DNA of 6,833 bases from a virus (IMGVR_UViG_2663762857_000020), one strand, 5' to 3'; shown: positions 3,179 to 6,833, counted from the stretch's first letter. Notes: a model not told the origin generated them from the sequence alone. A program made the numbers and translations.

Positions 3179-3756
3179 ACACGGCAGCGGAAGCCATCCG
3201 CGCACTGTCGATGCAGGTGCCGGGCTTTCGCCGTCAGATGAACGAAGGCTGGTACCAGATACGCATTGCCGGTGAGGATACGGCACCGGAGGCGGTGTAT
3301 GCCCGCCTTCACGAACCACTGAGTGAGGGAACGGTTATCCATATTGTGCCGCGACTGGCCGGGGCCGGAAAGGGAGGACTGCAGATTGTGCTGGGGGCGG
3401 CAGCCATCGTGGGCTCTTTCCTCACTGCCGGTGCCTCGATGGCGTTATGGGGTACAGCCCTGAGTGCCGGCGGTTTTTCTGCCACCACGATGCTGTTTTC
3501 ACTGGGGGCCAGCATGATTCTGGGTGGTGTGGCCCAGATGCTGGCCCCGAAGGCAAAAACACCGGATTACCGCGCAACGGATAACGGCAGACAGAACACG
3601 TATTTTTCGTCACTGGACAACATGATTGCCCAGGGTAACCCGATGCCGGTGCCTTACGGGGAAATGCTGGTTGGCTCCCGCCGTATATCCCAGGACATCA
3701 GTACCCGTGATGAAGGCGGGTGCGGAAAGGTCGTGGTTATCGGGCGGCAGGGGTAA
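3076..3756 (+). CDS. I: Tail tip assembly protein I, 226 aa
   Basis: Matches recalled lambda I family (...LHGDLQRFGRRLSLYVNTAAEAIRALSMQVPGFRRQMNEGWYQIRIAGED...). Overlaps the 3' end of K by 103 nt in another frame, the same arrangement I recall for lambda K/I. SD GGGAGAGG at 3057-3064. Confidence 0.9.
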   Translation: MATTNAFCLASPPLARICLHGDLQRFGRRLSLYVNTAAEAIRALSMQVPGFRRQMNEGWYQIRIAGEDTAPEAVYARLHEPLSEGTVIHIVPRLAGAGKGGLQIVLGAAAIVGSFLTAGASMALWGTALSAGGFSATTMLFSLGASMILGGVAQMLAPKAKTPDYRATDNGRQNTYFSSLDNMIAQGNPMPVPYGEMLVGSRRISQDISTRDEGGCGKVVVIGRQG

Positions 3757-3760
3757 AAAG

Positions 3761-3798
3761 AATAAAAAAAATCCCGCAGTGATCGCGGAGCTGCGGGG
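3761..3798 (-). terminator. Rho-independent terminator, minus strand
   Basis: Minus-strand RNA reads CCCCGCAG-(11-nt loop)-CUGCGGG followed directly by UUUUUUUU (+ strand A-run 3763-3770). 7-bp GC-rich stem at 3773-3779 / 3791-3797. No U-tract follows the stem on the + strand. Confidence 0.7.
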
Positions 3799-3858
3799 AC
3801 AGACAAAGATTAGAGTTAAGGAGTTGTTTTTGTTACTCGGGCAAAAAAACACTAACGC
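3762..3858 (-). ncRNA. Candidate small RNA (~95 nt) in the I-J intergenic insert, antisense to the tail operon
   Basis: Bounded by the minus-strand promoter at 3865-3892 (predicted start near G at 3858) and the terminator at 3761-3798. No ATG in the transcribed segment. Predicted RNA has a 5' stem (GUUUUUU / AAAAAC), a single-stranded CA-rich and CU-rich region (AACAAAAACAACUCCUUAACUCUAAUCUUUGUCUGU) and a terminator with U-tail, the layout typical of Hfq-dependent sRNAs. Confidence 0.45.
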
Positions 3859-3864
3859 AGCGAA

Positions 3865-3892
3865 ATTATACGCGCCACAGTCAGTTTGTGAA
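3865..3892 (-). promoter_or_regulatory. Sigma70-type promoter, minus strand: -35 TTCACA, 16-bp spacer, -10 TATAAT
   Basis: Minus strand reads TTCACAaactgactgtggcgcgTATAAT. The -10 is a perfect consensus (+ strand 3865-3870), the -35 is 5/6 (+ strand 3887-3892), and a purine sits 7 nt downstream. Confidence 0.5.
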
Positions 3893-3964
3893 AATGTGAA
3901 GATATTCAGAATTTTTATGCCATTACCGGTTTTTACCAACAGGATTATCGGTGGACATGAAAGA

Positions 3965-3999
3965 AAACCCCGGTATCTGCTGATACCGGGGTTTCTCTT
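3965..3999. terminator. Strong GC-rich hairpin, terminator-like in both orientations
   Basis: Stem AAACCCCGGTATC (3965-3977) pairs with GATACCGGGGTTT (3982-3994) around a 4-nt loop TGCT. Followed on the + strand by TTTCTCTTT; on the minus strand the stem is followed by a U-rich stretch. A second short inverted repeat, AGCATG (4001-4006) / CATGCT (4021-4026), follows. Confidence 0.35.
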
Positions 4000-4097
4000 T
4001 AGCATGGCAGAAATGTGTTTCATGCTTTTCGGGCGAAGGATATCCGACTTCTGTACGGAATGGCAAGTGGCGGTTAATTTATTCAGGGGAAGGCTGT

Positions 4098-6833
4098 ATG
4101 GGAAAAGGTGGCGGTAAGGCACACACGCCTCGTGAGGCGAAGGATAATCTCAAATCCACGCAGATGATGAGCGTGATTGATGCGGTTGGTGAGGGACCGA
4201 TAGAAGGCCCGGTGAAGGGACTGCAGAGTATCCTGGTGAACAAAACCCCGCTGACGGACACGGACGGTAATCCCGTGATACACGGTGTGACGGCGGTCTG
4301 GCGCGCCGGGGAGCAGGAGCAGACACCACCGGAAGGCTTTGAGTCCTCCGGAGCTGAAACTGTACTGGGCGTGGAAGTGACGAAGGCAAAACCGGTGACG
4401 CGCACCATTACGTCCGCGAACATTGACCGCCTGCGGGTTACCTTCGGGGTGCAGTCACTGGTGCAGACCACGTCAAAGGGTGACCGAAACCCGACATCCG
4501 TCCGCCTGCTGATTCAGTTACAGCGTAACGGTAACTGGGTGACAGAAAAGGATGTCACCATTAACGGCAAGACCACCTCGCAGTTTCTGGCGTCGGTGAT
4601 TCTGGATAATCTGCCTCCCCGTCCTTTTAACATCCGGATGGTCCGGGAGACGGCGGACAGCACCACGGACCAGTTGCAGAACAGAACACTCTGGTCATCG
4701 TACACCGAAATCATCGATGTGAAACAGTGCTACCCGAACACGGCGATTGTGGGGCTGCAGGTGGATGCGGAGCAGTTCGGTGGTCAGCAGATGACGGTGA
4801 ACTACCATATCCGCGGTCGCATCATCCAGGTGCCGTCAAACTATGACCCGGAAAAACGCACCTACAGCGGTATCTGGGACGGCAGTCTGAAACCGGCATA
4901 CAGCAACAACCCGGCCTGGTGCCTGTGGGACATGCTGACTCACCCGCGCTACGGGATGGGAAAACGTCTGGGGGCGGCGGATGTGGACAAGTGGGCGCTG
5001 TATGCCATCGGGCAGTACTGCGACCAGACGGTCCCGGATGGTTTCGGGGGCACAGAGCCGCGGATGACCTTTAATGCGTACCTGGCACAACAGCGTAAGG
5101 CGTGGGACGTTCTCAGTGATTTCTGCTCGGCGATGCGCTGTATGCCGGTATGGAACGGCCAGACGCTGACGTTCGTTCAGGACCGCCCGTCGGATGTGGT
5201 GTGGCCGTACACCAACAGCGATGTGGTGGTGGATGATAACGGCGTGGGGTTCCGCTACAGCTTCAGTGCCCTGAAGGACCGGCACACGGCGGTGGAGGTG
5301 AATTACACCGACCCGCAGAACGGCTGGCAGACCTCCACGGAACTGGTGGAAGACCCGGAAGCCATACTGCGCTACGGACGCAACCTGCTGAAGATGGATG
5401 CGTTCGGCTGCACCAGTCGCGGTCAGGCCCACCGTGCCGGGCTGTGGGTGATAAAGACAGAACTGCTGGAAACGCAGACGGTGGATTTCACACTCGGGTC
5501 ACAGGGGCTGCGGCACACACCCGGTGACATCATTGAAATCTGTGATAACGACTATGCCGGAACCCTGACCGGCGGACGTGTCCTGTCCATTGATGCTGCC
5601 ACCCGCACCCTGACGCTGGACCGTGAAGTGACACTTCCGGGGACAGGTACATCGACGGTGAACCTGATTAACGGCAGCGGTAAGCCGGTGAGTGTGGACA
5701 TCACCGCACACCCCGCGCCGGACCGGATACAGGTCAGTACCCTGCCTGATGGTGTGGAGACATACGGGGTGTGGGGACTCTCCCTGCCGTCACTGCGCCG
5801 TCGCCTGTTCCGCTGTGTCTCCATCCGGGAAAACACGGACGGCACCTTTGCCATCACGGCGGTGCAGCACGTACCGGAAAAAGAAGCCATTGTGGATAAC
5901 GGAGCCCGCTTTGAGCCGCAGTCAGGCACCCTGAACAGCGTTATCCCACCGGCAGTACAGCACCTCACGGTGGAGGTGAGCGCAGCTGACAGCCAGTATC
6001 TGGCGCTGGCGAAATGGGACACGCCGAGGGTGGTGAAGGGCGTGCGCTTCAGTCTGCGCCTGACCAGTGGAAGCGATGAGAACAGCCGCCTGCTGACCAC
6101 CGCCATCACTGCCGATACGGAGCACCGTTTCAGTGGCCTGCCTCTCGGGGAATACACCCTGACGGTCAGGGCGATAAACAGCTACGGCCAGCAGGGCGAA
6201 CCGGCCACCACCACGTTCCGGATTAATGCGCCTGCAGCACCGGCCACCATTGAGCTGACGCCGGGGTATTTTCAGATAACGGCGGTACCGCGTCTTGCGG
6301 TGTATGACCCGACGGTGCAGTTTGAGTTCTGGTTTTCGGAGGCAAAAATTGCAGACGCCGCACAGGTGGAAACCTCTGCCCGTTATCTGGGGACCGGCAG
6401 TCAGTGGAGTGTCTCCGGTCCGCACATTAAGCCCGGAAAGGATTTCTGGTTTTATGTGCGCAGCGTCAACCTGGTGGGTAAATCTGCTTTTGTGGAAGCC
6501 AGTGGACGGGCGAGCAATGATGCTGCGGGCTATCTGGAACTTTTCCGGGAAAAGATAGGAAAAACGCATCTGGCAGAGGCGCTGTGGGCAGAGATTGACA
6601 ACAGTCAGCTGAAGGACGAGATGGCGGAAATGCAGACCACCATCACCGAAACCCGCAATGAAATCACACAGACGGTCAGTAAAACGCTGGAGGACCAGAG
6701 CGCCACCATACAGCAAATCCAGCGTGTGCAGACGGACACCCGTAATGACCTGAACAGCATGTGGGCGGTGAAGCTGCAGAAGATGCAGGACGGACGCCTT
6801 TATATTGCCGGTATTGGTGCAGGCATTGAGAAT
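4098..6833 (+). CDS. J: Tail tip / host specificity protein J, N-terminal 912 codons (3' end beyond the window)
   Basis: ATG at 4098 with SD AGGGGAAGG. Hand translation is open and in frame to the window end. Matches recalled lambda J from the N-terminus (MGKG..HTPREAKDNLKSTQ..) through conserved blocks (NPAWCLWDMLTHPRYGMGKRLGAADVDKWALY, RLFRCVSIRENTDGTFAITAVQHVPEKEAIVDNGA, VYDPTVQFEFWFSE). The last ~100 residues in the window diverge from lambda. Confidence 0.95.
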   Translation, partial: MGKGGGKAHTPREAKDNLKSTQMMSVIDAVGEGPIEGPVKGLQSILVNKTPLTDTDGNPVIHGVTAVWRAGEQEQTPPEGFESSGAETVLGVEVTKAKPVTRTITSANIDRLRVTFGVQSLVQTTSKGDRNPTSVRLLIQLQRNGNWVTEKDVTINGKTTSQFLASVILDNLPPRPFNIRMVRETADSTTDQLQNRTLWSSYTEIIDVKQCYPNTAIVGLQVDAEQFGGQQMTVNYHIRGRIIQVPSNYDPEKRTYSGIWDGSLKPAYSNNPAWCLWDMLTHPRYGMGKRLGAADVDKWALYAIGQYCDQTVPDGFGGTEPRMTFNAYLAQQRKAWDVLSDFCSAMRCMPVWNGQTLTFVQDRPSDVVWPYTNSDVVVDDNGVGFRYSFSALKDRHTAVEVNYTDPQNGWQTSTELVEDPEAILRYGRNLLKMDAFGCTSRGQAHRAGLWVIKTELLETQTVDFTLGSQGLRHTPGDIIEICDNDYAGTLTGGRVLSIDAATRTLTLDREVTLPGTGTSTVNLINGSGKPVSVDITAHPAPDRIQVSTLPDGVETYGVWGLSLPSLRRRLFRCVSIRENTDGTFAITAVQHVPEKEAIVDNGARFEPQSGTLNSVIPPAVQHLTVEVSAADSQYLALAKWDTPRVVKGVRFSLRLTSGSDENSRLLTTAITADTEHRFSGLPLGEYTLTVRAINSYGQQGEPATTTFRINAPAAPATIELTPGYFQITAVPRLAVYDPTVQFEFWFSEAKIADAAQVETSARYLGTGSQWSVSGPHIKPGKDFWFYVRSVNLVGKSAFVEASGRASNDAAGYLELFREKIGKTHLAEALWAEIDNSQLKDEMAEMQTTITETRNEITQTVSKTLEDQSATIQQIQRVQTDTRNDLNSMWAVKLQKMQDGRLYIAGIGAGIEN

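Follow-up and report, generated by a model that had tools for sequence, protein, structure and literature searches.

The GC-rich hairpin at 3965–3994 of the window (the whole stretch of viral DNA analysed here, 6,833 nucleotides long) is probably a Rho-independent terminator, carried by an exchangeable 179-bp spacer between the small RNA gene PasB and the tail gene J of a lambdoid prophage. The hairpin, called hairpin 1 below, is an ordinary element of a well-known kind and not a new system. Its predicted capability to terminate on the − strand is an addition of the type of spacer found in the window (type L), which phage lambda and the other main type of spacer (type S) appear to be without.

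Results

The hairpin lies between I and J in a late operon

The window covers the 3′ part of the lambda-type tail operon of a lambdoid prophage, on the + strand, and its region is 100% identical to a prophage of E. coli UPEC-245U. The gene order on this strand is tape-measure/H (to ~1400), M, L, K, I (ending at 3756), a 341-bp gap and J, whose Shine–Dalgarno sequence GGGGAAGG and start codon ATG (4098–4100) together occupy 4086–4100; the identities of I and J are backed by PHROG matches. Read on the + strand, hairpin 1 falls within this late operon, in the gap that separates I from J. No transcription unit is annotated on the − strand, where the only promoter-like site upstream of hairpin 1 is a weak one at 4037–4066 (TTGCCA-18-TATCCT, 9/12 matches, a threshold-level match). 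An Rfam search of the whole window at E ≤ 1 gave no match within 3900–4097; the sole match was to Hrs1, over the PasB terminator region (3764–3835), and was sub-threshold (22 bits versus a 56-bit gathering score).

The first-pass annotation had placed the hairpin between a candidate sRNA promoter and the J ribosome-binding site. The location is right, between the end of I at 3756, a − strand promoter at 3892–3865 and the J ATG at 4098, and the candidate promoter is that of a known sRNA, PasB (TTCACA-16-TATAAT; 11/12 matches in a promoter scan). This Hfq-dependent sRNA was discovered by RIL-seq in EPEC E2348/69; the reported RNA is 83 nt long, comes from the minus strand and is encoded between the homologues of I and J in prophage PP6 (PMC8550237). 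It has been described by Pearl Mizrahi et al. (2021) and in a preprint (Zhu et al., 2026), the latter presenting it as embedded in a phage structural-gene operon and widespread in E. coli. EPEC expresses it strongly from a type S locus, and its levels are reportedly higher under non-activating conditions. In the window the gene occupies 3764–3858 on the − strand, with a transcript spanning ~3764–3843/3858 and its own terminator at 3789–3773, followed by a U-run; the published Northern probe AATCCCGCAGTGATCGCGGAGCT is identical to 3769–3791. PasB is present at the I–J junction in ~30% of complete E. coli genomes.

PasB adjoins the block that contains hairpin 1 and is not part of it. The PasB transcription start is over 100 nt away from hairpin 1, which lies upstream of it, outside the 83-nt transcript and its terminator, and is missing from the PasB type strain, E2348/69. 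Two further candidates involving RNA from this region were discarded. Pairing of PasB with the J 5′ UTR was no better than that of shuffled sequence, 196 of 500 shuffles being as good, and HnrS (EcOnc10-12), a 66-nt multicopy prophage sRNA, was rejected as the identity of a − strand RNA here since it maps elsewhere in Sp12 (2234239). Separately, the ~26 bp upstream of the PasB −35 element (3893–3918, AATGTGAAGATATTCAGAA.TTTTAT) are constant save for one variable base in every junction type that retains the PasB promoter, even where identity in the PasB body is 74–81%. This constancy suggests an UP element or a regulator-binding site.

Hairpin 1 has the form of a terminator on both strands

An inverted-repeat comparison of the window identified arms of 13 nt at 3965–3977 and 3982–3994 that are 100% complementary across a 4-nt gap (AAACCCCGGTATC TGCT GATACCGGGGTTT), as had been claimed from inspection. 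The GC-rich core comprises 10 bp (3968–3991), including seven G–C pairs, and the palindrome reaches out to CATGAAAGAAAACCCCGGTATC / GATACCGGGGTTTCTCTTTAGCATG. The predicted folding energies of 3955–4006 as RNA are −29.0 (+ strand) and −28.6 kcal/mol (− strand), with z-scores of −8.3 and −7.5, respectively; none of 200 shuffles was as stable. No perfect hairpin stem in the 6.8-kb window is longer, and in dinucleotide shuffles of the whole window (n = 100) the longest stems were of 6–11 bp, so that 13 bp was never reached.

U-rich tracts lie directly 3′ of the stem on each strand (UUUCUCUUU on +, UUUUCUUUC on −). The tail that would serve + strand termination, already noticed in the first-pass annotation, occupies 3992–4000 (TTTCTCTTT; T-score 3.43); that for the − strand occupies 3957–3967 and reads TTTTCTTTCAT on that strand (T-score 4.20), equalling or bettering its counterpart. 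Hairpin 1 therefore has what is expected of an intrinsic terminator, a GC-rich stem in the range of ~5–14 bp, a loop of 3–8 nt and a U-rich tract right after the stem, the last of these on both strands; it also has the 5′ A-tract mirroring the 3′ U-tract that marks bidirectional terminators. Because the A- and T-tracts mirror each other around the stem (AAAGAAAA ... TTTCTCTTT), it should terminate on the − strand no less well than on the + strand.

Bidirectional intrinsic terminators, in which a hairpin with an A-tract and a U-tract serves convergent transcription units, were reportedly found by SEnd-seq by Ju and colleagues in 2019. Hairpin 1 resembles them in its mirror tracts and in its positive scores on both strands, and differs in that no convergent pair of annotated transcription units ends at it.

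All simple hairpins on both strands were scored in the manner of d'Aubenton-Carafa, combining hairpin energy per nucleotide with a weighted T-tail. The score is only of this type and was paired with Turner energies, so the d-scores are used here as ranks only, the ranking being trustworthy and the threshold not. Ranked in this way, hairpin 1 comes first among the hairpins of the 6.8-kb window on each strand (d = +22.3 on + and +33.8 on −), which bears out the earlier suggestion that it could act on either; a simple terminator scan also flagged it, on the − strand, with 14 pairs. Its positional analogues rank as terminators on the + strand only: the hairpin of the lambda I–J gap scores +18.6 on + and −17.2 on −, that of mEp460 +19.3 and −17.2, and those of type S cassettes +12 to +36 and −21 to −38. 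The hairpin of sodC, a − strand gene found at some I–J junctions, scores −27.7 on + and +9.8 on −, the terminator of PasB itself +5.4 on − (the + strand being not applicable), and the I–J hairpin of Serratia phage Opt-169 is terminator-like on neither strand (−10.5 / −8.4). The + strand runner-up in the window is a hairpin at 707–733 (GGGTCATCAGTAAAGAGCTGGTGGCCC then TTTTGTTGTTG; d = +20.2) within the tape-measure coding sequence, so that high d-scores also arise where no terminator role is expected.

The first-pass annotation had described tandem hairpins. Its second member, an inverted repeat at 4002–4026 on the + strand (AGCATG ... CATGCT; a 6-bp stem formed by 4002–4007 and 4021–4026, with a 13-nt loop), is at chance level: the minimum free energy fold of 3996–4032 has −7.8 kcal/mol (z = −1.27), and 21 of 200 shuffles were equally stable. 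Its left arm could instead lengthen hairpin 1, which is the only one of the pair to hold.

The I–J gap is modular

Viral contigs gathered by similarity to the J N-terminus (80 in all) were sorted by their I–J junction. PasB junctions that keep the promoter share ...AAAATGTGAAGATATTCAGAA(N)TTTTAT, ending at window position 3918, and then diverge. The junction continues with 3919–4097 in ~45 of the 80; this is the type L cassette, a 179-bp exchangeable non-coding block on the + strand that contains hairpin 1 and the J ribosome-binding site. Its left edge is the point after TTTTAT at which types L and S diverge, and its right edge is the J start codon. Type S, in ~30 of the 80 contigs, including E2348/69 PP6, Sakai Sp9 and phage PhiR12_1, is an unrelated block of ~80 bp with the hairpin CAGGCACC-CGGTGA-GGTGCCTG followed by TTGTTTTTG. 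The type S stem, CAGGCA(C/T)C(C)-loop-(G)G(G/A)TGCCTG, has undergone one compensatory U–A to C–G exchange in two of seven sequences, and its T-run is largely conserved, with an invariant TTTTTG core. The two types are alike in having the PasB promoter to the left and J to the right, in their left boundary after TTTTAT, and in supplying a terminator-like hairpin and a J ribosome-binding site. They have no sequence similarity, however, and type S carries a T-run on the + strand only and exists as several diverged alleles, in contrast to the single near-invariant allele of type L.

A third type of junction holds a minus-strand sodC gene (Cu,Zn-superoxide dismutase) with its own hairpin, together with a promoterless PasB remnant. 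It was seen at seven loci (L053, L030, L047, L066, L070, L087 and L088; for example, 640–1500 of L053); the encoded protein has a lipoprotein-type signal peptide, the gene has its own terminator hairpin, and in the adjoining PasB-like remnant the −10/−35 region has been replaced. Every cassette supplies its own J ribosome-binding site. J is found with at least three alternative upstream cassettes, and the I–J junction is an insertion hotspot for minus-strand cargo.

The first-pass annotation had asked whether the whole gap of ~340 bp is present or absent as a unit. Sorting of the I–J junctions speaks against this: the PasB module (3757–3918) and the cassette (3919–4097) assort independently and the gap is therefore not one unit, the ~30 type S contigs, PP6 and Sp9 among them, combining PasB with the other, 80-bp cassette.

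Morons, in the concept of Juhala and Hendrix, are promoter–gene–terminator units inserted between conserved genes of lambdoid phages. The I–J junction resembles this arrangement in its minus-strand cargo with its own terminators (PasB, and sodC at the seven related loci). The type L cassette is absent from lambda and from type S prophages and has a terminator-like hairpin, but no credible cargo gene or promoter was seen in it. Nor is hairpin 1 the terminator of a PasB moron, since it lies upstream of the PasB promoter and not downstream of PasB.

Type L is common and nearly invariant

A search of 5426 complete E. coli genomes found the type L cassette in 1446, with at least 95% identity in every match. 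There is a median of one copy per genome, always beside J, so it is not a dispersed repeat of the REP/BIME, ERIC or MITE kind. Blastn searches (word size 11) of E. coli genomes, phages and plasmids for divergent relatives of the cassette, or for a different source of it, returned near-identical, J-adjoining copies only. An exact-pattern scan of IMG/VR for the hairpin found it in 112 contigs, all in the same J-adjoining context; since this set was chosen by exact match to the hairpin, the set selected by J (~45) is the fairer one for judging the integrity of the stem, and it contained one deletion of the hairpin and one degraded copy.

Among 68 distinct haplotypes, nucleotide diversity (pi) was 0.001–0.005 over 3961–4097, 0.013–0.07 in J (first 600 nt) and 0.18 in PasB, climbing gradually going into J. 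We did not adopt strong purifying selection as the explanation for the invariance of type L, the gradual rise into J fitting an insertion of single origin. Such an insertion has no homologous partner and varies by mutation only, which explains the invariance without selection; the flanks are more diverse because they recombine with other alleles.

Natural variants alter the tails of hairpin 1, TTTCTCTTT becoming TTTTCTTT (in Sakai Sp12 and L080) or, in a few contigs, TTTCTGTTT, and leave the GC core unbroken save in one contig with a probable assembly error. In Sakai Sp12 the hairpin occupies 2217495–2217524 of NC_002695.2, where the + strand of the window corresponds to the minus strand (window position x lies at 2217391 + (4098 − x)). 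In one prophage (L065) the hairpin has been removed by a clean 47-bp deletion between AGAAA direct repeats, and is therefore dispensable at least for persistence as a prophage. Two sequences came from unexpected hosts: a 3.4-kb contig in a 'Streptomyces flavalbus' assembly (L085, NZ_JBHTEB010000006.1), with homopolymer-type errors in the hairpin, and one in a 'Clostridiales' MAG (L088, SFGJ01000116.1). Both carry the E. coli prophage I–PasB–J region at 93–98% identity and are almost certainly contamination.

A hairpin before J occurs in lambda

Lambda has no PasB and an I–J gap of 60 bp, in which a hairpin (J02459, ~15465–15490; GAAACCGCC-TGCG-GGCGGTTTTGTC, also given as GAAACCGCC-TGCG-GGCGGTTTTGTCATTT) lies just upstream of the J ribosome-binding site. 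It matches hairpin 1 in its position between I and J, in its form (A-tract, GC stem, 4-nt loop and T-run) and in scoring as a terminator on the + strand. Its sequence is unrelated, however; its GC core is of 5 bp as against 10 bp in type L, it is terminator-like on the + strand only, it lies 20 nt from the J ribosome-binding site where hairpin 1 is ~90 nt away, and no sRNA gene adjoins it. The hairpin of mEp460 is that of lambda with a different loop base and that of Salmonella phage SPF_0923 is identical to it, both also in a 60-bp I–J gap without an sRNA. Serratia phage Opt-169 has a different GC hairpin, without a T-run, in an I–J gap of 45 bp, and in more distant J-bearing phages I and J are 2–14 bp apart with no hairpin between them. 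No named terminator between I and J of lambda emerged from a literature search, and we know of no name given to one at this site.

Since such hairpins precede J in lambda, mEp460, SPF_0923, type S and type L, a terminator-like hairpin right before J is a positional feature of long standing in the lambda-type operon. Upstream of this hairpin the PasB module has been inserted, and the spacer that holds the hairpin has undergone replacement more than once. The first-pass annotation had taken the hairpin block for an acquired regulatory cassette, foreign to the ancestral tail operon. The first part stands for the DNA itself, which is acquired and exchangeable since lambda and many relatives are without the sequence; the second needs qualifying, as lambda, mEp460 and SPF_0923 have a hairpin of this kind in the same position and only the sequence is new.

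Lambda also has a 22-codon ORF at 15442–15515 (J02459) whose ATG overlaps the I stop codon (TGATG) and which runs through the I–J hairpin to a TAA 4 nt after the J ATG (ATGGGTAA). It is kept in mEp460 with amino-acid changes and may be a translational-coupling bridge or a coincidence.

Discussion

We consider it fairly likely that hairpin 1 is a Rho-independent terminator within a replaceable spacer. In lambda, polymerase modified by the antiterminator Q ignores terminators within the late operon. Because hairpin 1 lies mid-operon and J is needed, a role on the + strand would exist only for polymerase unmodified by Q. We infer that hairpin 1 would stop such polymerase before J; its targets in a lysogen would be stray or read-through transcription, including transcripts antisense to PasB, while Q-modified late transcription would pass the hairpin into J. 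On the − strand it would keep antisense transcripts that arise at the 5′ end of J from running into the PasB promoter. Insulation of this kind is not needed for PasB expression as such, since PasB is well expressed in EPEC, where the cassette is without a − strand terminator.

There is a small but real chance that hairpin 1 acts instead in the late polycistronic RNA, as an intercistronic stabiliser or processing barrier and not as a terminator, guarding the Z–I mRNA segment at its 3′ end or the J segment at its 5′ end, and thereby setting the ratios of tail proteins. Lambda, type S, type L and Serratia phage Opt-169 each have a stable hairpin at this position, of unrelated sequence, and that the Serratia hairpin scores as a terminator on neither strand suggests that the hairpin, and not the U-tract, may be the conserved element. 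A terminator would also be silent under Q antitermination, whereas an RNA stabiliser would still be active. Nevertheless, a T-run, for which a pure stabiliser has no need, has been retained directly 3′ of the stem in each of lambda, type S and type L, and the close packing of I and J without a hairpin in the more distant J-bearing phages also speaks against this reading.

A second reading, which we regard as improbable, makes the type L cassette a second − strand sRNA gene, in tandem with PasB and upstream of it. Transcription from the promoter-like site at 4066–4037 would start near 4030 and yield an RNA of ~70 nt, consisting of a small 5′ hairpin, the A/G-rich single-stranded segment AAAGAGAAA, and hairpin 1 with UUUUCUUU as an Hfq-type terminator. 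The promoter-like site has an A/T-rich upstream tract, 3958–4032 on the − strand folds into just such a 5′ hairpin, linker and terminator (−31.9 kcal/mol), and the − strand has the better U-tract. More than 100 contigs are invariant over the stretch of the cassette that holds the putative promoter, body and terminator, and the other cargo of the junction, PasB and sodC, is likewise on the − strand. However, the promoter has only 9/12 matches, with TATCCT as its −10 element, and ~0.5 such threshold-level matches are expected by chance in the region scanned; the 5′ hairpin is at chance level, the invariance of the cassette is explained without selection, and there is no Rfam match.

Published RNA catalogues do not favour such an sRNA. 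The Hfq-CRAC catalogue for EHEC Sakai has only two Sp12 sRNAs, neither at the I–J junction. Searches of the supplements of Tree 2014 and Waters 2016 gave no entries for sRNAs or interactions at the Sp12 I–J junction, the old coordinates 22172xx–22173xx falling outside the interval searched owing to a 136-nt offset; the Tree 2014 table is still informative because it gives only two Sp12 sRNAs. A CLASH supplement gave no match at this junction over the part of the interval that the search covered. XECs209, a − strand ORF of Sakai Sp12 (NC_002695) whose window equivalent is 4078–3701, from an ATT at 4078 through the hairpin, was at one point taken as RNA-seq evidence for − strand transcription of the cassette. 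This was dropped, since the ORF includes all of PasB and the coordinates of the paper (NC_002695.1) are 136 nt below those of NC_002695.2 at the locus. The XECs209 signal is mostly PasB, to which its RNA-seq component is attributable, and its low ribosome coverage fits a non-coding RNA.

More generally, type L might be a functional unit, acting either through this ~70-nt sRNA or as an attenuator, sensed by translation or structure, that controls Q-independent entry into J; even taken jointly the two versions seem unlikely to us. The attenuator would draw on two features of the cassette. Positions 3924–3934 (TACCGGTTTTT) are 82% complementary to the left arm of hairpin 1 and could form an alternative structure with it. 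An 8-codon mini-ORF at 3957–3983 on the + strand (ATG AAA GAA AAC CCC GGT ATC TGC TGA) runs through the left arm, with its stop codon at the boundary of loop and right arm; its Shine–Dalgarno-like motif, GGTGGA, is too near the ATG.

It is similarly doubtful that the palindrome is non-regulatory, a neutral passenger or recombination scar that matters only as a hotspot of deletion and illegitimate recombination. It does resemble a deletion hotspot: in two independent degenerate prophages large deletions end within the right arm, one running from the portal gene to the hairpin (L074, ~1380–1400) and one from mid-I to the hairpin (L091, NZ_CP032791, ~2500–2515), and in a further prophage the hairpin was lost between the AGAAA repeats; the single recent origin of the cassette would also suit a passenger. 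Yet a perfect 13-bp stem between mirror A/T tracts corresponds to the canonical bidirectional terminator, unrelated cassettes hold terminator-like hairpins at the same position, and the stem is intact in 112 of the 112 contexts of the set selected by exact match, rare deletions apart.

That the region encodes a small protein is highly improbable: although the + strand 66-codon ORF 3917–4117 is annotated as hypothetical in phage ASU11 and XECs209 passed ribosome-profiling thresholds (Huecker et al., 2017; PMC5597208), Pfam and PHROG searches gave no match for the 66-codon ORF or for a − strand 47-codon ORF, the former lacks a Shine–Dalgarno sequence, holds a −29 kcal/mol hairpin and overlaps the J start, and XECs209 has a rare ATT start, runs over the PasB promoter and the whole PasB gene, has low ribosome-coverage values (0.34 / 0.12 / 0.10) and is open only in the ΔC3995 (Sakai) allele, the window allele having five stop codons in frame. 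Neither ORF that crosses hairpin 1 is credible, and the hairpin lies outside coding regions, as first supposed.

The practical value of these results is modest. They fix the anatomy of a very common prophage I–J locus, in which PasB and the hairpin block are separate modules, and the corrected anatomy is of use for mapping PasB transcription and for designing PasB deletions that spare J. They also help to interpret Term-seq peaks and small-ORF calls such as XECs209, here reinterpreted, in the prophages of EHEC, EPEC and UPEC, and they link the locus to lambda's own I–J hairpin. Were type L a functional unit after all, more than a quarter of sequenced E. coli would carry an undescribed prophage regulatory element. 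If hairpin 1 does terminate on both strands, a single element would limit Q-independent expression of the host-range protein and at the same time shield the promoter of a prophage sRNA.
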